A DNA stretch of 64,000 nt from a virus: IMG/VR virus record IMGVR_UViG_3300045988_176431, positions 128,001 to 192,000 of that record. One strand, 5' to 3'. The position numbers and the translations under genes were made by a program. The stretch's first letter is position 1, and every line of letters starts with the position of its first letter. Shown here piece by piece: positions 6,728-60,538 of this stretch. The notes beneath the pieces are model-generated. The model did no database searches and had not been told where the DNA came from. It saw nothing but the letters and a program-made list of their open reading frames with translations.

Positions 6728-6743
6728 TTAATATATTGTCTTT
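6728..6743 (-). promoter_or_regulatory. A-tract/ACA promoter-like motif
   Basis: Coding-strand AAAGACAATATATTAA, 37 nt upstream of ATG 6701. Confidence 0.45.
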
Positions 6744-6984
6744 ACCAATCTTGTTTAAACATTTTAAAAATATCAGCATCAGGTACCTCTTCTTCACCTG
6801 TTGGTACTAACATGAAATCTGAATTATTGGATTCTTTTATAGAAGATGTAATAGTTGGACGATTTAATACATTATCATATCTTGTTGTTGGAAAGATAAT
6901 TCTTTTTTTCTTTTTTGCACCATCTTCTTCAATAATCTCATGAAAAAAACTGTCAGAATATCCAACATTCTTTAATTTACCCAT
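6742..6984 (-). CDS. hypothetical protein
   Basis: 80-aa ORF with SD ggaagtga upstream. Confidence 0.55.
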   Translation of the reverse strand: MGKLKNVGYSDSFFHEIIEEDGAKKKKRIIFPTTRYDNVLNRPTITSSIKESNNSDFMLVPTGEEEVPDADIFKMFKQDW

Positions 6985-7003
6985 ATAGATTCACTTCCTT
7001 TCT

Positions 7004-7180
7004 CTATTCCCCAGTCAAGTAAACATGCTTAATAGAATTATCAAGATTTAATTGATAATTTTCTACTGTACCATCATTTGGCGTGGCAATCATGAAATGA
7101 TCTGTTGGAATATTTTCCATATTAGATTTTTTATCTACAATTGCGTTACTTACATTAAAGTCACGAACATCACTACTCAT
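7004..7180 (-). CDS. small hypothetical protein (58 aa, below track cutoff)
   Basis: Hand-translated as MSSDVRDFNVSNAIVDKK...HVYLTGE. SD aatgaggtga upstream. Fills an otherwise empty gap in the operon. Confidence 0.45.
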   Translation of the reverse strand: MSSDVRDFNVSNAIVDKKSNMENIPTDHFMIATPNDGTVENYQLNLDNSIKHVYLTGE

Positions 7181-7194
7181 ATTATCACCTCATT

Positions 7195-8496
7195 CTACCA
7201 TTTTAATGTACTATTAATTGTGTAATTGGTTAATTCTTCCGTATCTGAGAAGTTTCCAGATGCATTCTTCAAACCAACAAAGAATCCACTCAAATCTGTA
7301 GAATCTTTTGTAAGTCTACCATCAATTGTTTCAACTCTTCCAAATAAATCTTCTAAGTCTTTCATTGAAGTTTCTGCATCTTCAATATCCTCAGTAATAC
7401 CTTTTGCATATACATTACGGAATCTTTCAATCCATAAAGTAATACCGTTAACAATTTCTTCACCTGGTTCTGAAGGATTAACATAAACAGCACCAGAAAA
7501 ACCAACTTTAGCAATTGTTTTTAAAGCAGATTCATAAGCTGGTAATTGAATAAAGTTAATAATACGATTATATGGATTATTATAATCCGTTGGTAAAATT
7601 GTATAATTATCTTTTGTTACAAAGGAACCAATGTAAAGATGAGTAAGAGCAATGATTCTTTCATTCATTTTATCATCATCAATTAATGATTTATAAACTT
7701 TTAAAGCATTTTCATCTTTTACAACATAATCAAGAGCAAGTTTCATTTTATGTAATGAAACATTCATGATTTTAATTGTACAATATTTGGAATTTTCACG
7801 TGTAATATTGAGTTCATCAAATACAGAAAGACTGAATTGATTTAATCTTACATATCCATTCTTTAAAAATGTTGTAACTCCACCATTTTGATCATAACTC
7901 GTGATCAAATATTGTACTTTTGCATTAGATTCTTCGTATCCTTTTTCATCAAAAAGTTTTTTCTCAGAAAGTAAAGTTTCATCTTCACCATCATAATTCT
8001 TTACAATCTGATTATAGATACCTGCACAAAAATCAATTAATGCAAGGTCTCTTGGACGAGCCATAAGATTTAAATAAATACCATTCATTTCTTGTGAGAA
8101 TGTAAATGAACCATTCTTCTCTAATAAGTTATTACTGTAAATTCCACCTGCACCATATTCGATTTTATTTGAATTTTGAATAAAATCCTGTAAATCAATC
8201 ATAGTTGTCATAAAGAACGTGTTTTCAACATCTTTACAATTATAAGAAGCAGGATATTTGAATTTTGGATAATCATTTTTTAAAGCACTTAATTGTGCAA
8301 TATAATCATCTAATTTTAATTTTTCACGATCAAAATAAATAAGAGAACCATCAGATACTCTTTTATAAGCAACTTCACCTGTTCTTTTATCCATTAACGA
8401 TTCACCATTTACTCCACGTTCTCGGTACTTCGTATCTAAGAACGAAGTACCGAAACGCAAGTTTGGTTGAATTGATGATACTGATGTGTTAGCCAC
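7195..8496 (-). CDS. hypothetical virion/tail-module protein
   Basis: 433-aa ORF with GTG start behind SD aaaggagtga. Co-oriented with the giant gene. Confidence 0.65.
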   Translation of the reverse strand: MANTSVSSIQPNLRFGTSFLDTKYRERGVNGESLMDKRTGEVAYKRVSDGSLIYFDREKLKLDDYIAQLSALKNDYPKFKYPASYNCKDVENTFFMTTMIDLQDFIQNSNKIEYGAGGIYSNNLLEKNGSFTFSQEMNGIYLNLMARPRDLALIDFCAGIYNQIVKNYDGEDETLLSEKKLFDEKGYEESNAKVQYLITSYDQNGGVTTFLKNGYVRLNQFSLSVFDELNITRENSKYCTIKIMNVSLHKMKLALDYVVKDENALKVYKSLIDDDKMNERIIALTHLYIGSFVTKDNYTILPTDYNNPYNRIINFIQLPAYESALKTIAKVGFSGAVYVNPSEPGEEIVNGITLWIERFRNVYAKGITEDIEDAETSMKDLEDLFGRVETIDGRLTKDSTDLSGFFVGLKNASGNFSDTEELTNYTINSTLKW

Positions 8497-8509
8497 AATA
8501 TCACTCCTT

Positions 8510-11500
8510 TCAAACTTTTGTTTTTTCAGATTCTATTTCTGTTTCAATAAATTCATCATCATTTCCAGTCATATAAACATTCCATCTATCATGGTCATCT
8601 CCATGATAATAAACATCAGGGTCTAATAAAAGAACATGTGATGGATCTGGATGTTTAACTCCTTCATGAATTTGCTTTACAACATTAATTGCATAAGCAG
8701 TTTTTGTATTTCTAGTTTTCTCATAATCGAAAAGATAGAAATTATTTGTATTTTCATCTTGATATAAATCGAATGTATTATTTGCATTCGTTATTTCTGG
8801 TATATCCGGGTCATATTCTTCAATATGAATACCATCTTTTGAAATATAGTATTCATATCTTGCTACACTTTTTCTTCGAACTTGATAGAAGAATATCCCA
8901 TTAGTGTAACTCATCATAATTTGATTGTAATCTTTTATAGTATCAGTATTCCAATCATAGAAATTTAATCCATTTGTAGAATACATAACTTTATCAGAAA
9001 GTACAATATAAACCATATTTTCAATGGAATGAATCATATCAAATTGAACTTCTTCTGTACAGTTCGGGTAAATATTTAGTTGAGTAATATCATAAGTTTT
9101 ATCTACTAAGTAAATTGAATTTTCTTTCTTCGCATATACTTTATCGATATTATAAAAATATGGAGAATATACCAAGTTTTGATTAATTTCTTCATCTGTT
9201 AATACTTTTGAAATAACCCAATGTTTTCCATCTTGTGTTTCAGCAACTGCCCGATTTACTCGAATTGGATTATCATTTTTATACACATCACCAAAAACAG
9301 CAAGTCTATCTTCAAAAGATAAAACTGCTTCTGGGTATAAGTGATAACGATTTGATAATTTATCTTTTACCGTTATTTTTTTACGATACCAAGATTCTGC
9401 ATCTGTACTCATATAATAATATACTGAATACAATGAGAAGATATACCATTCTCCTTTATTATAAACAACCTTGATATCTTTATTATTTGTTTTTTCTTCA
9501 ATTCCAAAATCAGTAAATGTTAATTTCTTAGAAAGACCATTGAATCCGTTATTGATAAACATCTCAATTCTATCAGGACATCCATAAGAAACAAATCGTT
9601 TACCATTGATTTCTTCATTAAATATAATTGATTCATAATCTTCCGGTTCATCATTAACATTGATTAATTCTTCATAAAGATCTCTCATAATAATATCACA
9701 TTGATCAATCGTTACTTCATGTGAGTCATACCGATAGAAGAGTTTATAAATCAATGAGAAATTGTATCGAATATCATCATGAATGAAAGTTGTTAACTCA
9801 CCAACAGCTAATTTCTTAGGAAGAAGTCTATTATAATAGAATGCTTCAAAGAAATAAGTTTCAATACTTAAATCACGTTCATATTCTTCTGGCTCTTCAC
9901 AAATATGATTATCTGGTGTTTTTCCAGTAATGTCAGTGATTACTCGGTCACGAACTTCATCTTCCATAAAAATTTCATTTAATAAATCAGAAATTGTATA
10001 GTAATTCTTAGCATCACAACCATAATATTCCCAATCCCTATCTTTTTCATAGATTTCTAAGTTGTGAAGAGAATGTACACCAGCAAGTTTAAGTTCAAAA
10101 GGACCAACTGGATAAATGTTATTTCTGCTGATTCTTCGACCGTTTAAATATACTTCAAAATAGCGAATATCAAATGGTTTATCAATGTATCCACGTAAAT
10201 CAATAGTTAGAATATTTGGATTTAAATCATCATCCGTTTTATCATATTTTAATTCTCGTTGATAATAAACTAACTTATTACGATATGGTGTCACATCAAC
10301 TGCAATATCGCTTTCTTTTTTGATAATATCAAGTAACTGAACTCTAGGATATCCGTATCTAAATTGTCCTTCATTCAAAAGTAATTCATAACGATTCTTC
10401 GAAATCAAACGACCATCACGGAATACTCGAATATATTCATTACTTCCACTATCTTTCTTAAATACATAATTTGGATCATCACCAACCTTATCAAGAACTT
10501 CATCTGTTGTATAATATATGTAAGTATCTTGAATTGGATTAGGTTCTGGTTCATCTTTATACCCAAGCGAATTAAAATGATAATAAATAGAATAGTAATC
10601 ATCTCTACCATAATAATCACCAGTTATTTGATTTTCAAATCGGTCTATAAAAAGAGTTTGATTAGATAAAGCAATATCAAAGCATGGATAATTCGTATAC
10701 TCCATTTTTTTATGAATTAAAGAAGATTCTTTTTTCAAAGAAATCTCAATCTCTTTATCTAAGAAATCATCATCAAGGCAAGTAATTCTTACTTTTGAGA
10801 CATTTGCTAATAATACTCCGTTTGTCCGATCAAGTGAACTCTTTCCTTTAGCAACTTTATCATATGAAATATATGATTGATTTCTTTTAATTATCATTGC
10901 ATCATTTGTTTCATAAACCGATATTGGAACATAAAGATTTCCTTTTTCATCTCCATAATGAATCAAACGATATAATTCATCGATTGTAATATCTTTTTCT
11001 CGAATTCTTTGACCATTAAAAGTATAATAACTTCCATCTTCTAAATAATATCCCTGTCCAACATGTAAGAAATAAATCTTTCCATCTTCAATATTATAAT
11101 TACCACCATCTGCAATGATTTGATTTACTTCTTCTACTGTGTACTTTGTTTCTGAAAGTTTTTTACCTTTACTATCGTAATGATAGAAATAATCATAAGA
11201 ATAATCTTTTGCATAGTAATCCAAATCAGTTGGATTCTTATACACAATTGTTGTATATTGTCTTTGAATCAACCCTTCAGGTAAATCAATTTCGATCAAA
11301 GTTTCAATACATTCACCAGCACTATTAAAATGAACATAATATCGATTTACAACCAAGTTATTATTAATATCAAACTCATCTTTCATGACAGGAACATAGA
11401 TATCTTCAGTTGTCGGGTCAATTAATGTAGCATATAAATAAACTTTTTCTTCCCGTTTCACATAGGCTGTAATCATCTTTTCTGTGTCTACATAATAATT

Positions 11501-13990: not shown

Positions 13991-14021
13991 CCGAATCTCA
14001 CCTTCCTTTCCTAATTTTTTA

Positions 14022-14039
14022 ATTATACTAATGTTTTTT
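14022..14039 (-). promoter_or_regulatory. A-tract/ACA promoter-like motif
   Basis: AAAAAACATTAGTATAAT, 42 nt upstream of ATG 13990. Confidence 0.6.
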
Positions 14040-14120
14040 GGGATAAAATATATGAAATTTGAAAGAATACAATTGAATCAACTCTTATATAAAAAGACAT
14101 ATATGAAAGGAGTAAACTAC

Positions 14121-14405: not shown

Positions 14406-14447
14406 GCCAGTTATGTTTTTGCGTAACCTCTTATTTTATTTTTTGGG

Positions 14448-14482
14448 TTGACCTAGTGAAGATTTATACTTCACTAGGTCAA
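14448..14482 (+). terminator. intrinsic terminator
   Basis: Stem ttgacctagtgaa / ttcactaggtcaa. Confidence 0.55.
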
Positions 14483-14503: not shown

Positions 14504-14521
14504 AAAAAACAGTAATTTAAG
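14504..14521 (+). promoter_or_regulatory. A-tract/ACA promoter-like motif
   Basis: AAAAAACAGTAATTTAAG, 37 nt upstream of ATG 14548. Confidence 0.6.
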
Positions 14522-16234: not shown

Positions 16235-16237
16235 AAA

Positions 16238-17232: not shown

Positions 17233-17260
17233 CTAAGTTCACCTTCCTTTTTTACTTTTT

Positions 17261-17277
17261 ATATCTGTGTTTTTTTA
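17261..17277 (-). promoter_or_regulatory. A-tract/ACA promoter-like motif
   Basis: AAAAAAACACAGATAT, 37 nt upstream of ATG 17232. Confidence 0.5.
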
Positions 17278-20746: not shown

Positions 20747-20888
20747 TAATAATCATTCCTTTCTTTATAAAAATTTCCTATATTTATTATAGGATTGTTT
20801 TTATACAAAATATGATACATTTTTATTGTATTTTTTGTCCCATACTTTTAAAAAACTGTCTTTTGAAGTCTATTAATATCATAAATAC
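20633..20888. other. putative invertible segment carrying promoter motif, SD, ATG and codons 1-38
   Basis: Bounded by perfect 206-bp inverted repeats. Contains ATG 20746 (minus strand) and motif taaaaacaatcctataa (20787-20803, minus strand). Confidence 0.6.
20787..20803 (-). promoter_or_regulatory. A-tract/ACA promoter-like motif inside the invertible segment
   Basis: TAAAAACAATCCTATAA, 51 nt upstream of ATG 20746. Confidence 0.5.
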
Positions 20889-22464: not shown

Positions 22465-22481
22465 ATTAAGATAATGTTTTT
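22465..22481 (-). promoter_or_regulatory. A-tract/ACA promoter-like motif
   Basis: AAAAACATTATCTTAAT, 43 nt upstream of ATG 22433. Confidence 0.6.
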
Positions 22482-22542: not shown

Positions 22543-22560
22543 AAAAAACATTAAATTAAT
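22543..22560 (+). promoter_or_regulatory. A-tract/ACA promoter-like motif
   Basis: AAAAAACATTAAATTAAT, 40 nt upstream of ATG 22590. Confidence 0.6.
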
Positions 22561-24333: not shown

Positions 24334-24351
24334 AAAAAACAATGAATTAAC
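24334..24351 (+). promoter_or_regulatory. A-tract/ACA promoter-like motif
   Basis: AAAAAACAATGAATTAAC, 39 nt upstream of ATG 24380. Confidence 0.6.
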
Positions 24352-28680: not shown

Positions 28681-28697
28681 TTAAACTAATGTTTTTT
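28681..28697 (-). promoter_or_regulatory. A-tract/ACA promoter-like motif
   Basis: AAAAAACATTAGTTTAA, 35 nt upstream of ATG 28655. Confidence 0.6.
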
Positions 28698-38563: not shown

Positions 38564-38582
38564 AAAAAAACATTCATTTAAT
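38564..38582 (+). promoter_or_regulatory. A-tract/ACA promoter-like motif
   Basis: AAAAAAACATTCATTTAAT, 43 nt upstream of ATG 38615. Confidence 0.6.
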
Positions 38583-44289: not shown

Positions 44290-44316
44290 AACATTACCTC
44301 CTTAAAAAATTATTCT

Positions 44317-44334
44317 TAATATATTTGTTTTTTA
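44317..44334 (-). promoter_or_regulatory. A-tract/ACA promoter-like motif
   Basis: AAAAAACAAATATATTAA, 38 nt upstream of ATG 44289. Confidence 0.6.
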
Positions 44335-44463
44335 ATTTAAATTAGTAAGAGTATAATAAAATTGATGTAAATATTTAAATATTTGTTTTCTTATTACGTT
44401 ATTAAAGGGACTAATAATTATATATTATTTCTTTGTAATTACTATAGAAAGGACGTGATTTTT

Positions 44464-45395: not shown

Positions 45396-48300
45396 TTATA
45401 ATTTAAATAACTTTTCTACTGGGCTATCTGATTCTGTTTTTTTCTCTCTTTCACGATTTACGGATGCTGTAATCATGGAATCCATATCTTCAAAAGTAAT
45501 TGCTGAGAATGTAGAAGCATATTGACATACTTGTCGAATACTTGCCATACTATAATCATATTCAGATACTTGACTATTTGGTTTACCAATGATTTTAGCA
45601 AACTTATAAGAAGTATCTTTCTTATAACGATAAGAAACAGAAAGTATCACTTCTTCAATAATAGATGGAACACCAAAATCTACATCACTAAGCTCTTGAT
45701 TTTCTTTCCATACTTGTAATGTCTTTGAATATGGAATTGAAGTTGGAACTTTACCAAATGTAATAAATCGTAAATAAGTCTGAGCATTTTCAGAATCTAC
45801 AATAAGAGAGCGATTACATACTTTATTTCCTTTAAAGAATTTAATCACTCGACAAGGGATTTCTCCTTCACCAGGAATATCAATAACCCTTGATTCTACA
45901 TTAGGTGCCTGAATATCAATCCATAATGGAATATTCATCGTATCAATGTATTGAAGTTTTCCATTTGTAAAAATACCCACATTTACAATACCAAAAGATG
46001 AGATATAACTTCCCATACTTTCTGCAAATTTGTAATTTTTATCAAAATAGAAGAATGGAATATAAATTTCACAATAAGCATCCTTTAAAATAATATCAGT
46101 TGCTGTTGCATCAAAAATTCCTTGCTTCTTATTTAATAAAAGAATTTCATCTGGGTTTAATTGATTTGTTTTAATTACATTATTATGGAATTTCTTCATA
46201 TTTAAGTTTGTAAGGGTTGTTGCCACTTTAGAGGCATCCAAACCAATAAACTTATTATTGTATCGTCCTGTACATTTTGAACAGAGTCTATCTCCTGTAC
46301 AAAACATTGGGCTATATACATGAATTTTCTTTCCAATATAATTCTTGATATTATTTTCATCTAATAAATAAGGTTTACCATTCACTTTAATATTACGATT
46401 GATAAAATCTGATTTATTTGATTCTGTTAATGTAACTTCTAATGTCTTATCAGTACCACAATCAGTTCCATCATCATCGATGATTTCTGTTTGCATTCCA
46501 GCAATTAACTGTTTTGCTAAATAACCAGAATCTGCTGTACCAACTGCTTTTGGATAAGCACCTGTGACAACTGAGTTTGCAAAAGCAGGAATATCAGACT
46601 TTTCAATTCCATCCATAAGGGAGGAACGTACAATATCATATTTTTTTGTAAGTGGATTGTAAATTGCACCTTTCATCAAAATGATATTTTTTAAGTTATT
46701 TCCGATACTACCTCTAGCACCAGAATAATATAAATCAAGTCCAGGGTCTCCTTCTAATACTTCCTCTGTCTTTTTAATTAATTCTTTTTCAACCTTTTCT
46801 GCGGTAACGACATCACCAGCATCAAGTTCTTTCTTATATTTTTTTAATAATTGGTCTTTTAATGTTTTTACTTCCTTTGGAATCTCAATCGTTGGAGCAG
46901 TAAAGGATGTAGTAATCACTGCATGAAGTTGTAATCCCAACCAGTCCCTTGAATCGATATAACTAGCCATTTGTTCAGCAGTTATTGTATCTGAAGTAAG
47001 TAAAATAGCTAAGATTTTTTCTAATTCAGAAAGACCTTTTGCATTTATCTTATGATTAACAAATCCAACTTTTTCTTCTAATTGGTTATCTTCTAAAATA
47101 ATCTTGTTAAAGATAATTCGTCCAACTGTTGTTCGAATTGCTTGTTTATTCTTATGATATTTCATTGGTCGAATAACAGCAATATCAGTTGGATGGTATG
47201 GTGGAACAATCGTTGTATTACCCTCTTTCTTTCTACCAAATAATTCAACTAAATAATCAAATGTAATATCTGATGATTTCATAGAAAGAAGTTCTTCTAC
47301 AAATTGTTGTGAAACGGTCTTTGAATCTTTTAATGGATCTTTTGTTAAAGCATATAATGTCTGAATTGCTTCATTACCAACAACACGGATATTCTTTCCA
47401 GTAGGAGTAATGAAATAAGATTTACTATTGATAACTCTTTCAATTTCAGCATTTGCTTCTTGTGTCCACAAGATTTTAGCAGTAATCTGGTCACCATCAT
47501 AATCACCACCAATTCCTTTTAAGTAAGCATTTGAGAATTGGATGGATTCTTTAAAGTATATAGCGATATTCTGTTTCGGAATTGACATATCAATATTTGG
47601 ATAAAACTTATAAATAGTATTATTAACTTTCACTGGAATTGTCGTAAGAGTTGACGTAACTCTTACTCTTCCTAAAAATACACCATAAGAATCCGTAACT
47701 GGATAACGAGTAATTAAAGCATGTTTATCCTTTGTAACATCATATGCCGCCATATATAATAAATCAGTAACTGTAAAAGGTCTGTCACTAATTGTACTAT
47801 ATTCTTTTTCATTATTGTAATCTACGATTTTACCAGAAAATCTTGCTTTACCAAATTTACCACCCTCTAAAGGAATTAAAATAGGATTAAATCTAGATTC
47901 TGGATTACGAATATATTGATCCATCATCTTTTTGATGTAATCATCTGTATAATATAATTCTGGTTTATAAATATTAATTCCTTCATAACTTCCAGCAATT
48001 AACATCGAGTTTTGCTGTTGAATAATGTTATTCTCAAAAAAGTCTTTAATCCATTTCATCATGAATGGATAACAAAGAGAACACACCTGAGAAATTGGTA
48101 TACCAATATGTCTGAAATCAATTTCCATATCTTTTGCTTTTTCTGCATGAAAGTTTGGTGTTGAAATAACAGAACGAACACAATAATCTACATTCTTACC
48201 CATTAAGAATCTTCTTATCATACCATTCTTATTTGCTAATTTTGTTTTAAAGAAATCATATACATCAACAAGCAAACTTTGAATATTATAATAGGTGCTA

Positions 48301-48890
48301 TGAAGAGTAAAATCAAACATATCACGTTCTTTTAATAAAGATGCTAAACGAATAATTTTAGAATACATATTATTGATTGGCTCTGTCTCTCCACCACCTG
48401 CTTGGTCTGCTTTAATGTCACGATAAAAAGCAGGTATTACAATTTCATATTCTGTAAAAATTTCAGTTTTTTTCGATTTCGTTAATAAATCAATTCTTTC
48501 ATTTCTCATTCCAGAAGAAGCGATTGTTTTTTCCCATTTAATTTTCTCCCAATCATCATAAATACTTTCTAGTCCTGTTTTACCATTATCATCTTGAATA
48601 ATATGACCATCTTTATCAAGTGAATAATAGAAATCACCATTAATAATTTTTTCAATATTACGATATAATCGTTTCAGAACTTTATAAGCATGAGGAGCAA
48701 AAAAATGTCCATTTAATTTAATATAAGCAAATGTACTTTTTCTACTTCGTACATCTACACCGAATATTTCATTTGATATTAAACCATCTGGGTCTGGTAC
48801 ATTTCCTCTCTGGAAAAGTATTGGACTCTTAATTTCTTTTAAATGGTTTAAATCAATAAACTCTTTCACATCGAAAAGTTCTATTTTCAT
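45396..48890 (-). CDS. multisubunit RNA polymerase beta-prime-like subunit (full length)
   Basis: 'RRFLMGKNVDYCVRSVISTPN' matches bacterial 'GKRVDYSGRSVI'. 'GGDYDGDQI' matches the catalytic NADFDGD. 'YSGARGSIGNNLKNIILMKGAI' matches 'SGARGS..Q..Q..GMRG'. 'GTADSGYLAKQLI' matches the bridge-helix 'NSGYLTRRLV'. ATG 48890 behind SD aggtga. Confidence 0.85.
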   Translation of the reverse strand: MKIELFDVKEFIDLNHLKEIKSPILFQRGNVPDPDGLISNEIFGVDVRSRKSTFAYIKLNGHFFAPHAYKVLKRLYRNIEKIINGDFYYSLDKDGHIIQDDNGKTGLESIYDDWEKIKWEKTIASSGMRNERIDLLTKSKKTEIFTEYEIVIPAFYRDIKADQAGGGETEPINNMYSKIIRLASLLKERDMFDFTLHSTYYNIQSLLVDVYDFFKTKLANKNGMIRRFLMGKNVDYCVRSVISTPNFHAEKAKDMEIDFRHIGIPISQVCSLCYPFMMKWIKDFFENNIIQQQNSMLIAGSYEGINIYKPELYYTDDYIKKMMDQYIRNPESRFNPILIPLEGGKFGKARFSGKIVDYNNEKEYSTISDRPFTVTDLLYMAAYDVTKDKHALITRYPVTDSYGVFLGRVRVTSTLTTIPVKVNNTIYKFYPNIDMSIPKQNIAIYFKESIQFSNAYLKGIGGDYDGDQITAKILWTQEANAEIERVINSKSYFITPTGKNIRVVGNEAIQTLYALTKDPLKDSKTVSQQFVEELLSMKSSDITFDYLVELFGRKKEGNTTIVPPYHPTDIAVIRPMKYHKNKQAIRTTVGRIIFNKIILEDNQLEEKVGFVNHKINAKGLSELEKILAILLTSDTITAEQMASYIDSRDWLGLQLHAVITTSFTAPTIEIPKEVKTLKDQLLKKYKKELDAGDVVTAEKVEKELIKKTEEVLEGDPGLDLYYSGARGSIGNNLKNIILMKGAIYNPLTKKYDIVRSSLMDGIEKSDIPAFANSVVTGAYPKAVGTADSGYLAKQLIAGMQTEIIDDDGTDCGTDKTLEVTLTESNKSDFINRNIKVNGKPYLLDENNIKNYIGKKIHVYSPMFCTGDRLCSKCTGRYNNKFIGLDASKVATTLTNLNMKKFHNNVIKTNQLNPDEILLLNKKQGIFDATATDIILKDAYCEIYIPFFYFDKNYKFAESMGSYISSFGIVNVGIFTNGKLQYIDTMNIPLWIDIQAPNVESRVIDIPGEGEIPCRVIKFFKGNKVCNRSLIVDSENAQTYLRFITFGKVPTSIPYSKTLQVWKENQELSDVDFGVPSIIEEVILSVSYRYKKDTSYKFAKIIGKPNSQVSEYDYSMASIRQVCQYASTFSAITFEDMDSMITASVNREREKKTESDSPVEKLFKL

Positions 48891-48913
48891 TTTTATTCTC
48901 ACCTACTTTCCTT

Positions 48914-48928
48914 AAGTTAATGTTTTTT
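48914..48928 (-). promoter_or_regulatory. A-tract/ACA promoter-like motif
   Basis: AAAAAACATTAACTT, 32 nt upstream of ATG 48890. Confidence 0.6.
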
Positions 48929-53819: not shown

Positions 53820-55040
53820 TTATCCTTCATATCCTTTCGGATACCAACTTACAATTAATTGTGAGTTATCTGGTATTTTATAATTTGTAATATACTTCTT
53901 AATTTGGAGTAATTGAACTCGATATCGATTCAATTGATTCTCCGAATTTGGGATAATATATTTTTTTGCTATTTTTGGATTATCCATAATAGAAAGATAA
54001 TATTCAATCATATCAAGTTTACTATTAATATATGACATAAGCATAATCTTATCATCAATGGATTGGATATCCTGTGATTTCATAGCTACATAGTCAATTT
54101 CATTTTGATTAACTGGTTTCAATTTTTTCTTTCTAATGTCAAGGAATTCTGTCATATAAGAATCCTCAATAATAGAATCTATTTCATTATTTACAGACTC
54201 GTATAACCACTCGTCAGTATAAGTAGTTTTCTGAAATGGGTTACAAATATCATTAATAAGTCCATTTACAGTTTCTGTCATATACATATCTTCTGGTAAA
54301 CGACCTGTAATTTCTTCATAACTTTCTTTCACCAATTTTGCTTTTCGTTTTTGAAGCATTTCAATTGATTTTTTCATATAATCAGTTGAGGTGGATAAAT
54401 TCTCACGAGATAATCCTCTTTGCTCAATCTTTGTCATTGCCGAAATCAATTCATTCAAATATCCATTTTTAACAGAGAATTGATCAGCTTTCAATTCTTT
54501 TTTTAAATCTGTTCTTGTATTACCATAAACACAAGCATTGATAAGTGGAATTTGAATCATCTTTTTAAACATTTTTTGTTTTAAGATAGATTTTGACTGG
54601 AACGGCATTGATACAAATGAGTATTGAATAACCATTTTGATTCTGGTTGGAACAGAATCTGTACAAACAACATGACCAATCTCATGTAATAATAAAGCAG
54701 ATAATTCTCTATCTGTAAATGAATTATCTAATACTCGTTCATCAATTTCAATCGTCCATTTATTACATTTTTCCCATAAATCTGTAATTGTTTCTTTTTT
54801 ACTCTTTTCATTTAAAAGATTAGATGTAATCTTATCTAATGCAGATTGTTCTGGAATAACAGACATAACAAAAGAATATTTTCGTTCTTTTGTTTTGATA
54901 ATTTTCACAGTAAAATCTTTTTTATATATCTTTTTTAAAGTGACCTCAAGTTTTTTAATGGCGTCTTCTTTTTTCATTCCATTTTTTAATTCACTAAAGA
55001 TTGCTTCAAATTCTTTTTTGTCTTCTGGAGATAATTTCAT
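53820..55040 (-). CDS. HExxH zinc-metallopeptidase-like protein
   Basis: 'SALLLHEIGHVVC'. SD ggtggtg and promoter motif upstream. Confidence 0.55.
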   Translation of the reverse strand: MKLSPEDKKEFEAIFSELKNGMKKEDAIKKLEVTLKKIYKKDFTVKIIKTKERKYSFVMSVIPEQSALDKITSNLLNEKSKKETITDLWEKCNKWTIEIDERVLDNSFTDRELSALLLHEIGHVVCTDSVPTRIKMVIQYSFVSMPFQSKSILKQKMFKKMIQIPLINACVYGNTRTDLKKELKADQFSVKNGYLNELISAMTKIEQRGLSRENLSTSTDYMKKSIEMLQKRKAKLVKESYEEITGRLPEDMYMTETVNGLINDICNPFQKTTYTDEWLYESVNNEIDSIIEDSYMTEFLDIRKKKLKPVNQNEIDYVAMKSQDIQSIDDKIMLMSYINSKLDMIEYYLSIMDNPKIAKKYIIPNSENQLNRYRVQLLQIKKYITNYKIPDNSQLIVSWYPKGYEG

Positions 55041-55080: not shown

Positions 55081-55097
55081 ATTAAACTAATGTTTTT
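55081..55097 (-). promoter_or_regulatory. A-tract/ACA promoter-like motif
   Basis: AAAAACATTAGTTTAAT, 51 nt upstream of ATG 55040. Nearly identical over about 27 nt to the copy at 28681. Confidence 0.6.
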
Positions 55098-55109
55098 CAA
55101 TAAACAATG

Positions 55110-55362
55110 AATAGAAAAGAGAACTGAGTAATGTCAGCTCTCTTATGTTCTTAATTCATTCATCCTGCCTTTTTTGTTATCCTCCAGGATGAAGTACCGG
55201 ACAACTTCATCCTAGAAAATAACCACGATCAAATTACAAATAAATAAGGGAGGATAAAGTAAGAAAAAGTATTGTGTCAACAGAGGGACACACAATCCAT
55301 CTTACACAAGTGATTAAATCAACATATTCTACCAGGCTTTATAGAATACGAGACTTTCACAC
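55110..55362 (-). ncRNA. candidate ~250-nt non-coding RNA
   Basis: No ORF over 16 codons with an SD. Promoter motif at 55362-55380 (minus strand). The terminator stem at 55117-55144 is perfect, with one G-U pair, only when read on the minus strand, and is followed by a U-rich tail. Internal hairpin at 55187-55212. Confidence 0.4.
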
Positions 55363-55380
55363 TTTAAGTATATGTTTTTA
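55362..55380 (-). promoter_or_regulatory. A-tract/ACA promoter-like motif with no ORF downstream
   Basis: TAAAAACATATACTTAAAG reads into the 250-nt non-coding unit. Confidence 0.45.
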
Positions 55381-55466: not shown

Positions 55467-57194
55467 TTAAACAAAATCTGCATTATCAAATGCAATATCA
55501 CCCTGAATACCCTGAACATGTGCATTCGTATATCTGGATGTTCCCATCAGATATGTAGCCGAACCACCTGGAAGATCAGGAGAACGATATGCAGAGTTTG
55601 CAGCTGTCATAATATGAGAAGAATATTTCCAATGCTTGAAGGTAATTGTATCCTTCGTTGTTGGGAATGGAATAATTCTCAACGTATTCATAGAAGAAGC
55701 GTTGATCTTCATAGCAGATACAACCTTAACTTTGATGTTTCCGCTTGTCATAACACCATAACTGTAATTCAGTTTAACACCTCCAACAGTATCGCCCTGA
55801 CGAACAACCCAGTTTACATTAGGGTCAAGCAGAGAGATATAACGAGGGTTACCATAAATTACGAATGTTAAATCTTCCAACTTAGCTGTATCAGCTAACT
55901 GGATTAAGAAACGATCAATCGTAAACTTCAACTGAGTTGCAATGAACTCACTTGGAAGTGCAGTTGTAGCGATTGTAGAATCACAATCGAAACGATGCTT
56001 AGCAACAAATGGATTGAAGTCAAGCGGATCTAAAACTGCTCCATCATATTTCTTAAACATCTCATCAAGATAATCAAGTGTCTGACTATCTTCCATCTGA
56101 ACAAGGATGTCGTTCAGATTTACATATGTCTTCTTATACAGATCTTCATTCAGAAGAGCTTTTGCATCTTCCAACTGCTCAAGAGAATATGGAATATCTG
56201 TACGGAATCCATCTTCAATCTTCCACTCCATGTCTTCACGAGTGTAATCCCAAGTTACAGCTCTTTCATTCTTTTCGTTTGAAAGATATCCTGTGAAGCT
56301 TACACCTTTAATCTGACCAGATGCAGAAGATAATGTAATTTTATTTGTTACAAAGTCACAGAAACCTGTTACGATATCGTTAACAGTAACATCCTCTTTA
56401 GTTTTGTTCTGAACTTTAACATCACGGATTACTCCGCCTACCCACTGACCATCTGCAAGATTTACAGTCATAGGTCTCTTAAGAACAACTTCTGTTCCAT
56501 CTTCAAGATAAACTTTATCAATCTGAATATTGATTGTAATGTTTTCACGTGTTGGGATAGAAGCATCTGTAAGTTCATCAATGATATCATAATCAAAGAG
56601 AGGAAGATTTACCTGCTTAGTATTAATCGGAAGACCTTTACCAGCTTTGAAAATCTCTTTATATTCATCATTGAAGAAGCACTGTGGGTACTGCCATCTC
56701 TTCTGTGTCTTAGGGTCAACTACCCATGTACGCTCAATCTGTTTCTTGATTACTGGAGATTTTGTAATCTCAGTATCAACAATGGCTTTCGAAATACATT
56801 TTGCATGAGAACGAACAACCAACGGCAAATCTACAGACTTAACAGGTAACAAGTTACCAACACGTGTAGACTCCATTACAAGGTCATTTACTGTATTATC
56901 ATACAACTGAGAAACTTCTTCGTATAAGTTTCCAGGTGTCAATTCACCATCTTCTCCTACAGACTCATTATAGAATCCAGACAGAAGAGCATCTTTAAAA
57001 GTATCAATCAGTTCCTTGCTTTTGATAAACGTGTTTACTTCTGTTTTGTAATCACAAGCACCGGATACTGCGTTTGCAGCTTCAGTAAACAAAGAATCGA
57101 AATCATTTGCAGATTGATTCATACTGAATCCGCCTACTGTGGCAGTTTCTTCGAAATTACTACCACTCTCGGTTAAAAATGGTAATCCATTCAT
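55467..57194 (-). CDS. putative major capsid protein
   Basis: 575 aa. ATG 57194 behind SD aaaggagtga, promoter motif 36 nt upstream, strong terminator. Codon usage is shifted to C-ending codons. Preceded by an acidic scaffold-like gene. Confidence 0.5.
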   Translation of the reverse strand: MNGLPFLTESGSNFEETATVGGFSMNQSANDFDSLFTEAANAVSGACDYKTEVNTFIKSKELIDTFKDALLSGFYNESVGEDGELTPGNLYEEVSQLYDNTVNDLVMESTRVGNLLPVKSVDLPLVVRSHAKCISKAIVDTEITKSPVIKKQIERTWVVDPKTQKRWQYPQCFFNDEYKEIFKAGKGLPINTKQVNLPLFDYDIIDELTDASIPTRENITINIQIDKVYLEDGTEVVLKRPMTVNLADGQWVGGVIRDVKVQNKTKEDVTVNDIVTGFCDFVTNKITLSSASGQIKGVSFTGYLSNEKNERAVTWDYTREDMEWKIEDGFRTDIPYSLEQLEDAKALLNEDLYKKTYVNLNDILVQMEDSQTLDYLDEMFKKYDGAVLDPLDFNPFVAKHRFDCDSTIATTALPSEFIATQLKFTIDRFLIQLADTAKLEDLTFVIYGNPRYISLLDPNVNWVVRQGDTVGGVKLNYSYGVMTSGNIKVKVVSAMKINASSMNTLRIIPFPTTKDTITFKHWKYSSHIMTAANSAYRSPDLPGGSATYLMGTSRYTNAHVQGIQGDIAFDNADFV

Positions 57195-57220
57195 TTTTTT
57201 CACTCCTTTAATTTTCATTT

Positions 57221-57237
57221 TATTATTTCTGTTTTTT
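57221..57237 (-). promoter_or_regulatory. A-tract/ACA promoter-like motif
   Basis: AAAAAACAGAAATAATA, 36 nt upstream of ATG 57194. Confidence 0.55.
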
Positions 57238-57320
57238 CACATCTTTTTGAACCCTCAGATTCAAATAATAAAATAGACATTACTTTGGATTTCTTTTATT
57301 TATATGTTTTATCATAAGAA

Positions 57321-58196
57321 TTAAGTTTTAGATTTAATTTCATTTAATCTTATCTTTTTTAATATCTGTAAAATAAGATTAATACTAGTCATAATTCTCT
57401 GATAGAAAAACATAGATTTTGTGAAACTTGATTTTGCAAATTTCATAATCATGTAATCCTTCATAAGTTCTTTTATTTTTATCAATTTGATACTGAGTTC
57501 TTTGTATTCTCTGTTTAATTCTCCATCATCAGATGTAATAGTATTGATTTCATCAATATATTCATCTAAACTTGTATAAACGTTTTTAAACTTCTGATAA
57601 AGATTGTATTTATACATTTGCTCTACTTTATCATCTTCTCCTTCTCCGGATTGATCTTCTCCTTGATCTGGTGTTTCAGAATCTGTTGTTTGAGCTTCTC
57701 CTTCCTCTCCACCATCTTCAGGAGGATTATCAGCATCTGCTGTGTAATCTTCATCATCCGTTATTGGTTCATCCGGAGTTCCTTCCTCTCCACCATCTTC
57801 TGGTGTTTCAGAATCTGTTGTTTGAGCTTCTCCTTCCTCTCCACCATCTTCAGGAGGATTATCAGCATCTGCTGTGTAATCTTCATCATCCGTTATTGGT
57901 TCATCCGGAGTTTCTTCCTCTCCACCATCTTCTGGTGTTTCAGAATCTTCCGGAATATCTGTATCTGAATAATCCTCTTCATCAGTTATTGGTTCTTCTG
58001 GAGTATCAACTTCTTCGTCATCATCCATTGTTATCTCAGAATCCTTTGTATAATCTCGTCTTCTTTTATCTGATAACTTTAAATCAATAACTTTCATATT
58101 TGATGGTTTTGAATCATCTGCTTCTTGAAATAAATTATATTCAAAAAAAGGAGATAACTTTTTACGTGTATCAACTTCAACAACCATATCAATCAA
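57321..58196 (-). CDS. highly acidic repeat protein (scaffold-like?)
   Basis: 291 aa. The D/E/T/P-rich centre contains a 44-aa tandem repeat; the C-terminus is helical. Confidence 0.65.
   Translation of the reverse strand: MIDMVVEVDTRKKLSPFFEYNLFQEADDSKPSNMKVIDLKLSDKRRRDYTKDSEITMDDDEEVDTPEEPITDEEDYSDTDIPEDSETPEDGGEEETPDEPITDDEDYTADADNPPEDGGEEGEAQTTDSETPEDGGEEGTPDEPITDDEDYTADADNPPEDGGEEGEAQTTDSETPDQGEDQSGEGEDDKVEQMYKYNLYQKFKNVYTSLDEYIDEINTITSDDGELNREYKELSIKLIKIKELMKDYMIMKFAKSSFTKSMFFYQRIMTSINLILQILKKIRLNEIKSKT
57670..57955. repeat. 132-bp tandem repeat, about 2.2 copies, in frame
   Basis: 'ggtgtttcagaatc' recurs at 57670, 57802 and 57934. The protein reads PEDGGEEG.PDEPITDDEDYTADADNPPEDGGEEGEAQTTDSET twice. 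Confidence 0.9.
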
Positions 58197-58202
58197 CCCC
58201 TT

Positions 58203-60446
58203 TTAAATGAAATTACTATTCAATTGTACACGATGCTTCTCAGCCGTTAATTTATCTTTGATTCTCATCAATTTATATTTTTCCTGCTGATCACCGTTTG
58301 CGTTTGCATCATTAATCTTTTCTTCACAAATGCGAATTTCAGTCTCTAATTCACGTGTTAATTCATTACGGATTCTTCTATCTTTATCTTTTGAAAAATG
58401 ACGAATTAACATAGCAAATGGAAGAGAGGATAATTTATATCTAGCAGCTCCACCATATAAAAGAGCCCACTTCGCATTTCTAAAGATTTTATGACGATAT
58501 CCAGGTTTTAAGAAAAATTCTTTTCGTCTTTTTACATCCATCTTATTAAAAGAATCTGTAAACTTTTTAACAGAATTTAACCAACCTTTTGGACCAGCCA
58601 TAATAGCTTTACCAGCATTTTTTAATTTTGTATTTTTTTCTTGACGAATTCCACGTTTCTGTTGACGTGCAGCTTCAGCATCAATTGCTTTGTTTTGAAT
58701 TTTGGTAGGGAGGTCTTCTTTTGGTTTTTGTGGTTTTACATTGGTTTTCTCTTTATCACCATGAATCTCTCTTCTAAATTCTTCAACTTCTTCATCTTTA
58801 TCTTTCGATGCTTCCACATATGCACTATCTATATAATATTTACTTGTTTTACGTACCTGAACATATATCTCAAATACAGGAATTCTATCAATAGTTTCGT
58901 CATTATATGTAACTTTGAAATCATTATCATATTTTTGGAATTTTTCTTTAATTTCTTTTTTTATATCTGCTATTTTTGTATCGGTTAGTGATTCTTTTTT
59001 AAAAGTACCAACCCATAAGCCTATACATTTTCCTTTGTAAAAATCTTCATTTATTTTTTCAGGATTATAACCATTTTCACATTTTAAGTTAAAACTTTTC
59101 ACAATATTCATTATAGTATGAAATGCATTTTTTCTGGCATCATAATTTTCTTTATTTGCTTCTTTCCAGTCTTTTCTTATTTTATTACCATCTTCATCAT
59201 AATCAAATAATTCATCTTCTTCTGATTCAGATTTCTTAACTGCATCTTCTTTTGCTTTTTTCTTTTCTTCTTCTTTCTCATTCTTTTCTTTTTCAATCTG
59301 TTTTTGTGTCATAATATGTTTTTTAATAACCGAATCTGGTTCTCCATTATCAGTCCATTCCATCATCGCAATGTCAGATGAAATATCATCAATATAATCC
59401 TCATACTTTTCTACAATTTCAGATACTTCATCTTCATCATCATGAGAAAGAATTTCAAAATCACGACAAGACTCATAGTAATTCTTTAATGATTTCAAAT
59501 AATCATATTTTTTGCATTTATTGATATCATTTACAATAGAATCTCCTGTTGTACATTCATAGATATCTTCTAAAGCAGCAGTCAATCCCATAAAATGATT
59601 CGTTGATTCTGTATAGGTTAATTCAGGTTTTTTAAGTCCAATGCTTATTAATCCTTTAATATAAATCTTTGTATTAAATGGCATTGTATCAATACGTGAC
59701 ATAACTAATTCATCTTTTCCAATAATGGATACTGCTCTTGCAGTATCCATTTTATATCTTTCAATATCAATAGAACTAGAATCGCTTACTATACCTGGTT
59801 GATTATCTTGATTATCATAAACGGCAGATCTAGCAACATGCCTTACAAGGTCTTCTAATAAATATGCACGAGTATATCCATTGACTAGAAAATATGCGAA
59901 TAAAGTAATTCTTGTATTTGGTTCAATACAATAAATAACGACTGAATTTATTATATCAGTTAATTCTTTTTCACATCCTGTTTCAGATATTTCATAAATA
60001 TAATCAAATACAGTATTTAGCATCTCTTCTCCACCACTTTTACAAGCAATCATTGAAAGATTTATTGTATTCTTTAATACTTTAAGTTCATCATCCAGAA
60101 TTTCTTTTATCTCATAATATAATCCAGTACCATTATCATAATCCATATTAAGTCCGTTACATTTATTAATTTTCTCCTCCACAATTGTTTGCACTGATGC
60201 TATTTTATGAAAAGGAATAAAATTATTGTTTACAATATCAAGAATGAATCTTGCTCCAAAATAACACCCTTCCGAAAGAATTAATGAAAGATTCTTAAGG
60301 ATAAATGACAAAGATTCATCTTTATACGTATTATAAAATTCTTGAGCGGTCTCTTCTGTATAATTCTTCTTCAATTCTTCATATTTTTTATCGAATCTTT
60401 TTTGAGGAGTCCCATTAAGAATTTCATCTTTATTTAAGATACTCAT
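58203..60446 (-). CDS. large hypothetical head-module protein
   Basis: 747-aa ORF with promoter-like motif 43 nt upstream. The C-terminus is basic and helical. Confidence 0.7.
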   Translation of the reverse strand: MSILNKDEILNGTPQKRFDKKYEELKKNYTEETAQEFYNTYKDESLSFILKNLSLILSEGCYFGARFILDIVNNNFIPFHKIASVQTIVEEKINKCNGLNMDYDNGTGLYYEIKEILDDELKVLKNTINLSMIACKSGGEEMLNTVFDYIYEISETGCEKELTDIINSVVIYCIEPNTRITLFAYFLVNGYTRAYLLEDLVRHVARSAVYDNQDNQPGIVSDSSSIDIERYKMDTARAVSIIGKDELVMSRIDTMPFNTKIYIKGLISIGLKKPELTYTESTNHFMGLTAALEDIYECTTGDSIVNDINKCKKYDYLKSLKNYYESCRDFEILSHDDEDEVSEIVEKYEDYIDDISSDIAMMEWTDNGEPDSVIKKHIMTQKQIEKEKNEKEEEKKKAKEDAVKKSESEEDELFDYDEDGNKIRKDWKEANKENYDARKNAFHTIMNIVKSFNLKCENGYNPEKINEDFYKGKCIGLWVGTFKKESLTDTKIADIKKEIKEKFQKYDNDFKVTYNDETIDRIPVFEIYVQVRKTSKYYIDSAYVEASKDKDEEVEEFRREIHGDKEKTNVKPQKPKEDLPTKIQNKAIDAEAARQQKRGIRQEKNTKLKNAGKAIMAGPKGWLNSVKKFTDSFNKMDVKRRKEFFLKPGYRHKIFRNAKWALLYGGAARYKLSSLPFAMLIRHFSKDKDRRIRNELTRELETEIRICEEKINDANANGDQQEKYKLMRIKDKLTAEKHRVQLNSNFI

Positions 60447-60477
60447 TTATAATTACCTCACTTTCTTCTTAAAAATT

Positions 60478-60494
60478 CTTATGTATTTGTTTTC
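60478..60494 (-). promoter_or_regulatory. A-tract/ACA promoter-like motif (weaker A-tract)
   Basis: GAAAACAAATACATAAG, 43 nt upstream of ATG 60446. Confidence 0.45.
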
Positions 60495-60519
60495 TTACCA
60501 TTTTTGCATAATTCTAATC

Positions 60520-60538
60520 AAAAAACAATACTCTAATG
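60520..60538 (+). promoter_or_regulatory. A-tract/ACA promoter-like motif
   Basis: AAAAAACAATACTCTAATG, 43 nt upstream of ATG 60570. Confidence 0.55.

Follow-up and report, generated by a model that had tools for sequence, protein, structure and literature searches.

A probable AR9-like late-promoter motif in an uncultivated jumbo phage of the human gut

Motif sites and the genes behind them

The window, that is, the whole 64,000-nt stretch analyzed here, comes from the genome (~254 kb) of a human gut jumbo phage that has not been cultivated and is distantly related to Bacillus phage AR9. The sites of a short A-tract/ACA motif, read as candidate late promoters, are given below with the features that they head. 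Predicted transcription start sites (TSS) are extrapolated from AR9 start positions.

6728..6743, minus: weak variant AAAGACA-N6-TAA with G at -11, ahead of 6441-6701, within a long late operon
14023..14037, minus: candidate promoter AAAACATTAGTATAA, predicted TSS 14024, heading the operon 13990 to 5847 (1826-aa protein and five more genes)
14506..14520, plus: candidate promoter, predicted TSS 14519, gene 14548-15504 (AR9 g281-like virion protein)
17259..17273, minus: candidate promoter, predicted TSS 17260, gene 16282-17232
20787..20801, minus: candidate promoter, predicted TSS 20788, gene 19889-20746
22466..22480, minus: candidate promoter, predicted TSS 22467, gene 21705-22433
22545..22559, plus: candidate promoter, predicted TSS 22558, gene 22590-23735 (weak virion-protein PHROG match)
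24336..24350, plus: candidate promoter, predicted TSS 24349, gene 24380-25597 (AR9 g165-like virion protein)
28681..28695, minus: candidate promoter, predicted TSS 28682, prohead protease 27777-28646 (AR9 g114-like) and two downstream genes
38567..38581, plus: candidate promoter, predicted TSS 38580, portal gene 38615-41038 (AR9 g128-like)
44375..44389, minus: canonical candidate promoter, distal, predicted TSS 44376, tail sheath gene 42082-44289
44316..44331, minus: N7 variant AAAACAAATATATTAA, whose end lies 26 nt ahead of the start codon of the sheath gene (27 nt from 5' end to ATG)
48912..48926, minus: candidate promoter, predicted TSS 48913, gene 45396-48890
45396..48890, minus: virion RNAP beta-prime, fused (AR9 g145 N-part, g264 C-part and g125-like virion protein)
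55082..55096, minus: candidate promoter, predicted TSS 55083, gene 53820-55040 (AR9 g118-like)
55108..55365, minus: structured non-coding transcription unit, flanked by the capsid gene and the g118-like gene
55364..55378, minus: candidate promoter, predicted TSS 55365, non-coding unit (~250 nt)
57296..57310, minus: canonical candidate promoter, distal, predicted TSS 57297, major capsid gene 55467-57194
57220..57235, minus: N7 variant AAAACAGAAATAATAA, whose end lies 25 nt ahead of the start codon of the capsid gene (26 nt from 5' end to ATG)
60479..60493, minus: candidate promoter, predicted TSS 60480, genes 58203-60446 and 57321-58196
60522..60536, plus: candidate promoter, predicted TSS 60535, gene 60570-62852 (tail protein, AR9 g278-like)

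The element is present at all 17 places named in the original prediction, 16 genes and the non-coding unit. The strict form fits 13 gene-proximal sites and the site of the non-coding unit, and fails at the two N7 variants and the weak G(-11) variant. Upstream of the N7 variants lie the two canonical minus-strand copies at 44375-44389 and 57296-57310, which the original prediction had missed. The N7 variant of the sheath gene is also kept in relatives L147, L148, and L152, and the 5' UTR behind the 6728..6743 variant duplicates that of the 13990 gene. The 6728 site and both N7 sites depart from the consensus and were counted against the promoter reading.

As had been proposed, the genes behind the motif are mostly structural or late: they include orthologues of AR9 late and virion genes (g281, g165, g114, g128, g126, g145/g264/g125, g118, and g278) and the beta-prime-like gene itself. 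Mapped late promoters are listed in AR9 Table S3 for g281, g114, g128, g126, g145, g264, g125, and g278. The motif is likewise absent, as claimed, from the polymerase and helicase genes of the window and from its accessory block at 30-38 kb; the genes lacking it include DNA polymerase, DnaB, ligase, and endonuclease (orthologues of AR9 g132, g007, g095, and g233). An AR9-like early motif, TATATATTAT, lies ahead of genes without the late motif.

The non-coding unit is structured (MFE -88.3 kcal/mol, z = -8.55) and is closed by a terminator hairpin. We found neither a tRNA nor a significant Rfam match (E 0.03-0.2 only) in it, and none of its ORFs reaches 45 aa; the longest, of 44 aa, is encoded on the opposite strand.

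Spacing, position, and frequency of the motif

In the core, six bases that are free to vary separate A(-11)A(-10)C(-9)A(-8) from T(-1)A(+1)A(+2), and further A residues stand at -12 to -15; across the 16 window sites, positions -1 to +3 read TAA(T/G/A/C). The strict pattern AAAACA-N6-TAA occurs 16 times in the window, compared with 4.28 +/- 1.94 in dinucleotide shuffles, and none of 100 shuffles reached that count. The original prediction had named a similar frequency inside genes as the point to watch; instead, all 16 strict copies are intergenic, although intergenic bases make up 10.6% of the window (binomial p = 2.7e-16). In an unbiased enumeration of ~115,000 gapped patterns (4-mer, gap of 3-9, 3-mer), AACA-N6-TAA and its overlapping reverse-strand form took ranks 1 and 2 for intergenic enrichment.

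This enrichment is confined to the N6 spacing. Spacing variants N3-N5 and N7-N9 gave 3-8 matches each, mostly coding. The C of the motif is needed as well: replacing it gave 37 matches, again mostly coding. Inside genes of the window AACA-N6-TAA occurs twice, versus 19-40 times for other spacings, and over the window plus six relatives 7 times versus 36-78. The N6 form is depleted ~10-fold inside genes, and the depletion affects both strands, antisense included.

The distance to the gene is as originally stated, with the C of ACA 32-52 nt from the co-oriented start codon at 13 strict sites; the two distal canonical copies lie 96 and 112 nt away. Strict sites sit just upstream of strong Shine-Dalgarno sequences. 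Many copies lie between divergent genes or immediately behind a terminator, places that require a promoter.

The motif extends to relatives of the phage. Of 54 distinct relatives (portal identity of 33-100%), 48 carry AACA-N6-TAA ahead of their portal gene, versus 2 of 590 control windows, and the footprint is kept in all six relatives examined at 44-81% portal identity. Over 117 kb of sequence from relatives, 34 of 39 occurrences are intergenic (p = 1.6e-31).

RNA polymerase genes and the reading of the motif

What the original prediction stated of AR9 is correct: the mapped AR9 late consensus is A(-11)ACA(-8)-N6-T A/G(+1), read by the non-virion RNAP (PMC5312081, PMC7598289). Core and spacing here are identical to those of the 94 mapped AR9 late promoters, and under a weight matrix built from AR9 only, the best 13 of 16 window sites score 8.8-14.1 bits, compared with a median of 11.8 for AR9 promoters. 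We consider it probable, at roughly 0.8, that the motif is a late-promoter class read by the phage's own non-virion multisubunit RNAP of the AR9 type.

An AR9-like recognition is supported by the core, the spacing, the gene classes, and the relatives. The part of the original argument that leaned on the RNAP gene of the window needs correcting. In AR9, the virion RNAP (with g145 and g264) reads early promoters and not the late motif; judged by its AR9 counterparts, the beta-prime gene of the window is a late gene for the virion RNAP and not the reader of the motif. The gene for the N-terminal subunit of the non-virion beta-prime (beta'N, AR9 g270-like) belongs to this genome too and is found outside the window, ~7-9 kb upstream of it. 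It was located in L313, within IMGVR_UViG_3300045988_176405, and in L329 at 1-165 plus 1302-1418; L329 overlaps window positions 1-11593 with 0 mismatches, which places beta'N in the window genome. In relative L150, beta'N shows 28% identity to AR9 g270 (E 1e-32) and no match to g145. One subunit of an AR9-type split non-virion RNAP, beta'N, is present.

Independence from sigma factors, as originally suggested, holds in part. Host sigma is not needed in AR9, but recognition is not factor-free: the holoenzyme, gp270/gp154/gp105/gp089 plus gp226, requires the sigma-like gp226, and this protein and the beta-N subunit jointly read the template-strand complement, 3'-UUGU-5' (PMC9209446). Word- and pattern-dependent searches, covering a small part of the 254-kb genome, found no gp226/gp68-family specificity subunit for this clade; that family is large, with 505 representatives at 50% identity, none of which could be linked to the clade.

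By analogy with AR9, a non-virion multisubunit RNAP made from early genes would bind the motif, presumably reading the template strand here as well, and would begin transcription at the A 9 nt past the C, which would leave 5' UTRs of 23-43 nt. Virion and morphogenesis genes would be turned on in this way, as would the gene for the virion RNAP and a single structured non-coding RNA.

DNA chemistry, alternative readings, and known systems

A full-length ThyX, absent from AR9, is encoded by this genome, 0.7-1.4 kb ahead of the first base of the window (TIGR02170, 150 bits versus an equivalog cutoff of 87.9, with the RHR motif). With this gene, the phage DNA probably carries thymine, unlike AR9's uracil DNA, in which case its polymerase would need to tolerate T at positions where that of AR9 takes only U: the AR9 enzyme needs U at -11/-10 and is inactive on thymine there (PMC9209446). 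Either recognition differs in detail between the two phages or the conclusion drawn from ThyX is wrong. Tentatively, and at slightly less than even odds, we suggest that this gut jumbo clade uses an AR9-type, template-strand-read promoter in thymine DNA, with a sigma-like subunit and beta-N pocket that naturally accept T(-11/-10). An engineered gp226 mutant is so far the one known case of such acceptance; compensating additional contacts might come from the invariant A(+2) and from the A-tract at -12 to -15. If true, dependence on uracil would be a specialization derived within the AR9/PBS1 group rather than a trait of the promoter class as such.

The same promoter class and enzyme could also work on deoxyuridine DNA with recognition identical to AR9, ThyX then serving another purpose, being inactive, or acting only early in infection. 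The core motif identical to AR9's, a GC content of ~28-30%, close to AR9's, the two-promoter scheme common to both phages, and Val as the commonest residue at the position of AR9 gp226 V206 (150 family representatives) all agree with this. We nevertheless regard it as rather unlikely: besides the full-length ThyX, according to comparative genomics a phage can have U-DNA only if it lacks thymidylate synthase/Thy1 (PMC7824862, PMC8150378), a lack by which U-DNA phages are defined, and the clade is routinely assembled from ordinary gut metagenomes, whereas U-DNA is reported to resist standard library preparation (MarsHill preprint).

It is very improbable that a phage factor, be it an alternative sigma or a late factor like gp55 of T4, redirects host RNAP to the motif, with TAAT/TTAAT serving as a -10-like element. 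T-2 T-1 A+1 A+2 T+3 does resemble an AT-rich -10 hexamer, and T(+5), found in 18 of 29 portal promoters of relatives, would allow a reading as TAAnnT; in the window, however, +5 is mostly A (11 of 16 sites). As first noted, no -35/-10 pair accompanies the motif: sigma-70-type pairs with 16-18 nt spacing number 105 in the window, not enriched over the 115.9 +/- 10.5 of shuffles, and the consensus pairs do not coincide with motif sites. The invariant AACA at a fixed 6-nt distance matches the AR9 non-virion RNAP and is used by no sigma family, no sigma-domain match was found among the window proteins scanned, and AR9-group phages transcribe without host RNAP.

That the motif is instead an RNA-level element of 5' leaders, such as a processing or translational-regulator site, is scarcely credible, as its fairly narrow distance to start codons just upstream of Shine-Dalgarno sequences is outweighed by the copies in divergent regions or after terminators, the copy heading a non-coding unit, the two distal copies, the purging from both gene strands, which an mRNA-leader element would not explain, and the same sequence adjoining and including mapped AR9 transcription starts.

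Read as an AR9-type late promoter, the motif is one sharp consensus, conserved in dozens of gut jumbo phages that are uncultivated and 220-285 kb in size. With it, late transcription units and start sites become annotatable from sequence alone, and the AACA-N6-TA logic reaches far beyond the Bacillus U-DNA phages. ThyX makes it testable whether template-strand reading of a -10-like element is tied to uracil or whether natural enzymes can also read thymine. A short, portable, host-independent promoter could be of use in engineering once the polymerase is identified.

Several known systems invite comparison. In phiKZ, late promoters of the form T(-3)ATG(+1) are read by the phage's non-virion RNAP with gp68; the likeness lies in late promoters independent of host sigma and read by a jumbo phage's own non-virion multisubunit RNAP. 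A phiKZ-type promoter is ruled out, since the proposed comparison found TATG in register at the predicted start in none of the sites, which carry a conserved -11 to -8 element absent from phiKZ. T4 late promoters carry TATAAATA at -10, without a -35 element, and are read by gp55/gp33 with the host core. They share with the present motif a short AT-rich late-gene signal lacking a -35 element (mentioned in PMC5312081); the sequence differs, AACA at fixed spacing is invariant here, and T4 requires the host core enzyme. Sigma-A/sigma-70 promoters (TTGACA-17-TATAAT) have a similar AT-rich, hexamer-like stretch near the start site, but the motif has no -35 partner and a conserved C where their spacer is unconstrained. 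That class is ruled out as well, with positions -26 to -21 reading TAWTTT and no enrichment of pairs.

With AR9 the phage shares the core tetranucleotide, the 6-nt spacer, TA at the predicted start site with short leaders behind it, a co-existing AT-rich TATATTAT early-promoter class, and phage-encoded virion and non-virion multisubunit RNAPs, whose proteins are ~28-36% identical to those of AR9. The virion beta-prime, split in AR9, is a single fused polypeptide here, and, again unlike in AR9, G(+1) is never seen. A(+2) is present in 16/16 window sites and 29/29 in relatives, compared with 36/94 in AR9, and A(-12/-13), fixed in the window and kept in 24/29 and 21/29 in relatives, compares with 45/94 at -12 in AR9. 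Promoters of AR9-like phages have been reported as unpredictable from sequence (PMC7598289; MarsHill preprint); the motif described here is so specific that it could be detected without RNA data, something that was not possible in the AR9-like Staphylococcus phages.

A spaced motif confined to the gaps between genes

The A-tract and CA reported in the original prediction are present ahead of every gene that it listed. Most of these sites fit the consensus AAAACA-N6-TAA, numbered A(-11)A(-10)C(-9)A(-8) and T(-1)A(+1)A(+2), while those of 44289 (sheath; genes are named by their start codons) and 57194 (major capsid) have a 7-nt spacer and that of 6701 has G at -11. The full consensus occurs 16 times in the window, against 4.28 ± 1.94 in dinucleotide shuffles, with none of 100 shuffles reaching 16. 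All 16 copies are intergenic, in a window where a simple gene model assigns 10.6% of bases to intergenic sequence (binomial p = 2.7e-16). Thirteen have their C 32-52 nt before a start codon, in line with the 32-51 nt claimed for the motif. The remaining copies comprise two distal second copies (sheath and capsid genes) and one that heads a non-coding unit:

55108-55365, (-) strand: ~250-nt non-coding unit lying between the g118-like gene and the capsid gene; it has a late promoter and a terminator of its own

We ranked every pattern in which a 4-mer is followed, after a gap of 3-9, by a 3-mer (~115,000 patterns) by intergenic enrichment. Ranks 1 and 2 went to AACA-N6-TAA, for which 16 of 18 copies are intergenic (p = 3e-14), and to the form that overlaps it on the opposite strand. 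The spacer variants N3-N5 and N7-N9 gave 3-8 matches each and replacement of the C gave 37, in both cases mainly coding. AAAACA and TAA are both present in 16 of 16 intergenic AACA-N6-TA sites versus 0 of 36 intragenic ones, so the extension beyond the core known from the Bacillus jumbo phage AR9 does not result from the choice of search pattern.

Rather than being equally frequent inside genes, the motif is concentrated between them and depleted within them. Intragenic AACA-Nk-TAA occurs twice in the window at k = 6, compared with 19-40 times at each other spacing; when 117 kb from six relatives is included, the figures are 7 and 36-78. AACA-N6-TA was found 52 times in the whole window against 81.7 expected, and the deficit is strongest antisense to genes. 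Enriched between genes and purged inside them on both strands, the motif behaves like a self-sufficient signal wherever it is located.

A role of the motif at the RNA level is unlikely, because copies follow terminators or occupy divergent intergenic regions, one heads the non-coding unit, and the purging extends to the antisense strand of genes. That the sites are sigma-70-type promoters is not supported either: such pairs show no enrichment (105 versus 115.9 ± 10.5 expected) and lie apart from the late-motif sites, as had been claimed for -35/-10 pairs, and no sigma domain was found among the scanned window proteins.

Several features of individual sites were also recorded. Genes 6701 and 13990 have an identical 24-nt stretch, TTAAAAAATTAGGAAAGGAAGGTG, in their leaders (6702-6727(-) and 13991-14020(-)); this suggests duplication of a cassette of promoter and leader, after which the 6701 copy may have lost the consensus A at -11. 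An upstream block, TATTTTATCC, lies at about -28 to -17 of the sites with C at 14033(-), 22476(-) and 48922(-), and more weakly at 14510(+) and 20797(-). As part of the core motif it was ruled out because it is not conserved in relatives; it may have been copied with a cassette or may serve as an auxiliary element. TAAnnT as a sigma-70 element was likewise rejected, as it is unsupported in the 16 window sites. When viral contigs were scanned with AAAAACATTANNTTAA, the matches listed were dominated by chance occurrences.

The phage, its relatives and other signals

A 254,052-bp scaffold from a human-gut metagenome (BENG15-1_SAMEA2784487_METAG-scaffold_59, ENA ERZ28573464) contains the window sequence unchanged, and the same portal gene, at 99-100% identity, is present on a 249-kb IMG/VR contig. 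A further contig, L329, belongs to the same genome and overlaps window positions 1-11593 with 0 mismatches. The G+C content of the 64 kb is ~28-30% and the ribosome-binding sites are of Firmicute type. Judged from its large proteins, the phage is a jumbo myovirus; we identified major capsid protein, portal, tail sheath, tail tube and prohead protease, together with a family-B DNA polymerase, DnaB helicase, NAD ligase and a 1164-aa RNAP beta-prime-like protein. Neither megablast with 10 kb of the window nor tblastn with one late protein gave a match in the phage collection; its relation to cultured phages is only distant. Portal homologues delimit a large clade of uncultivated phages with contigs of 220-285 kb.

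The motif is conserved across this clade. In six relatives with 44-81% portal identity, AAACA-N6-TAA precedes the portal gene in 6 of 6, within diverged flanks, and also precedes the virion RNAP, sheath and other genes. Across their 117 kb, 34 of 39 copies of AACA-N6-TAA are intergenic (intergenic bases 8.5%; p = 1.6e-31), and 28 of them have a co-oriented start no more than 70 nt away. When the base after AACA-N6-TA is not A, just 3 of 60 copies are intergenic. More broadly, 48 of 54 distinct IMG/VR portal-upstream regions (33-100% portal identity) contain AACA-N6-TAA, as opposed to 2 of 590 equal-length control windows inside portal genes. Among 29 non-redundant representatives, AACA, T(-1), A(+1) and A(+2) are invariant, and A is found at -12 in 24 and at -13 in 21.

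Other candidate transcription signals were also recorded. Intrinsic-terminator-like hairpins number 14 versus 4.6 in shuffles (~3x; window 13000-30000); they lie mainly between convergent genes, and several are bidirectional (16237-16273, 19840-19883, 21662-21698 and 25593-25634). A second promoter-like class, the exact sequence TATATATTAT followed by N6 and then G or A, occurs four times, always intergenic and 36-65 nt before co-oriented genes that lack the late motif. It agrees with the consensus of AR9 early (virion RNAP) promoters, AAATATATATTAT-N6-G. The sites are:

2721-2730, (+) strand: TATATATTAT
30931-30940, (+) strand: TATATATTAT
38513-38522, (-) strand: TATATATTAT
44419-44428, (+) strand: TATATATTAT
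49351-49358, (-) strand: also recorded with this class

Of 24 occurrences of the 8-mer TATATTAT, 11 are intergenic, and relatives have similar sites. Ahead of the DNA polymerase gene, TATAATATTTTTGACAA (17293-17340(+)) resembles TATATTCTTTTTGACAA ahead of the orthologue in the relative L149 (~7350-7400), and the two could represent a third, middle or host-type, promoter class.

The non-coding unit folds at -88.3 kcal/mol, versus -52.9 ± 4.1 kcal/mol in shuffles (z = -8.55). It contains no ORF of at least 45 aa, the longest being 44 aa on the opposite strand; a tRNA search of it was empty, and its Rfam matches were insignificant (E 0.03-0.2). AR9 has a gap of just 66 nt at this place.

Elsewhere, the DnaB-like helicase gene is split into exons 28790-30046 and 30586-30885, each matching AR9 g007, and is interrupted by a group I intron (RF00028 match 30018-30398(+), gap 30047-30585) that scores 43.8 bits (E 7.8e-10), slightly below the gathering score of 50. 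Early regions hold paralogues of a hexapeptide-repeat protein (YdcK-like, left-handed beta-helix) at window 31824-32609(+) and at L329 1721-2458, 2833-3510 and 4047-4685, and the accessory block includes a crAss001_48-related protein (37070-37315) and a DUF6275 protein (36795-37055).

RNA polymerase genes and the bases of the DNA

The beta-prime-like protein of the window has its best match (~36%) in the beta-prime of the virion RNAP from AR9-group phages, which infect Bacillus, Staphylococcus and Listeria:

45396-48890, (-) strand: fused virion RNAP beta-prime, 1164 aa, corresponding to AR9 g145 (N-terminal part), g264 (C-terminal part) and g125 (virion protein)

These are three separate genes in AR9 and a single polypeptide here; the same fusion, of 1163 aa, is found in the relatives L147 and L152. 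The RNAP gene inside the window encodes the virion enzyme and is itself a late gene under this promoter.

A separate gene for the N-terminal beta-prime subunit of the non-virion enzyme (beta'N) exists in the clade. A 448-aa protein with NADFDGD in the relative L150 matches AR9 g270 (E 1e-32) and gives no match to g145. A first beta'N pattern matched AR9 alone; with an alignment trimmed to the conserved part of the L150 protein, the gene was detected in many contigs of the clade, one of them from the window species (L313, IMGVR_UViG_3300045988_176405). The window genome carries the following:

L329 1-165 and 1302-1418, (+) strand: beta'N 3' exons (AR9 g270-like), ~7.4-8.8 kb upstream of window base 1

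Between these exons lies a ~1.1-kb insertion, which carries a group-I-like GATATAGTC signature as well as an ORF of 231 aa.

We also searched for a relative of gp226, the sigma-like specificity subunit of the AR9 non-virion RNAP. AR9 gp226 and two profiles, run against a 5.8-billion protein set, retrieved only AR9-like phages and one lineage of phages with 23% GC; in IMG/VR, the matches of three pattern scans belonged to other clades (AR9, phiR1-37-like) and to no portal-clade contig; and an HMM search of loci from the window genome and relatives was negative. A full HMMER search returned 505 representatives of the gp226 family; the best 150 of the 505 are listed, as proteins apart from their genomes. 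We infer a gp226-like subunit for the clade because all phages of this kind are stated to possess one (PMC7598289).

The AR9 enzyme reads template-strand 3'-UUGU-5' and is inactive if positions -11 and -10 carry T instead of U; the methyl group would collide with valine 206 of gp226, and a single substitution makes the pocket T-accepting (PMC9209446). The window genome encodes a flavin-dependent thymidylate synthase, which AR9 lacks:

L329 7446-8087, (+) strand: full-length ThyX, 0.7-1.4 kb upstream of window base 1

It scores 150 bits with TIGR02170 (cutoff 87.9), has the RHR-x7-S motif, and has its nearest relatives in the ThyX of other gut phages. The gene lies in an early-type operon and adjoins a guanylate-kinase-like gene. 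Its presence argues for thymine rather than uracil DNA: according to comparative genomics, a U-DNA phage must lack thymidylate synthase/Thy1 (PMC7824862), and a review on U-DNA viruses reasons likewise from metabolism (PMC8150378). This indirect evidence suggests that the clade may read an AR9-type promoter in thymine DNA, to which we give slightly less than even odds.

Comparison with the late promoters of AR9

The original prediction pointed to a likeness to AR9, and its account of the AR9 motif agrees with the published work: 94 of 118 mapped late transcription starts of AR9 follow AACA-(6N)-TA/G, whose final base is the start itself, and it is the non-virion RNAP that recognises this motif (PMC5312081, PMC7598289). 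We rebuilt a matrix from these 94 starts (AR9 Table S3), and its information is confined to A-11, A-10, C-9, A-8, T-1 and A/G+1, the same core in the same register as at the window sites. With this AR9-only matrix, 13 of the 16 window sites are among the 40 best matches, at 8.8-14.1 bits; AR9 promoters score a median of 11.8 bits with their own matrix (10th percentile 8.2).

The genes behind the motif are orthologues of AR9 g281, g165, g114 (prohead protease), g128 (portal), g126 (sheath), g118 and g278, and of g145/g264/g125 (virion RNAP and virion protein). For most of these, AR9 Table S3 gives late promoters with 22-74-nt leaders (g165 and g118 are absent from the table); predicted leaders in the window are 23-43 nt. 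Polymerase and helicase genes had been said to lack the motif, and the orthologues of g132 (DNA polymerase), g007 (DnaB), g095 (ligase) and g233 (endonuclease) are indeed without it.

The observation as a whole is confirmed, and its interpretation as an AR9-type promoter is supported, with corrections such as the assignment of the window RNAP gene to the virion enzyme. We put at about 0.8 the probability that the window sites are late promoters for the non-virion RNAP that the phage itself encodes. By analogy, they would work like the AR9 late promoter and are very probably the same in evolutionary terms.

We found no published description of the motif in these gut phages in open-access text. 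Reviews state that promoters of such phages escape prediction (PMC7598289), and in AR9-like Staphylococcus phages the late motif was not findable from sequence (MarsHill preprint); in the window clade, by contrast, it is conspicuous and conserved. From the AR9 late promoter, that of the window clade differs in three ways: the invariant A(+2), the upstream A-tract and, probably, the base chemistry of the DNA.
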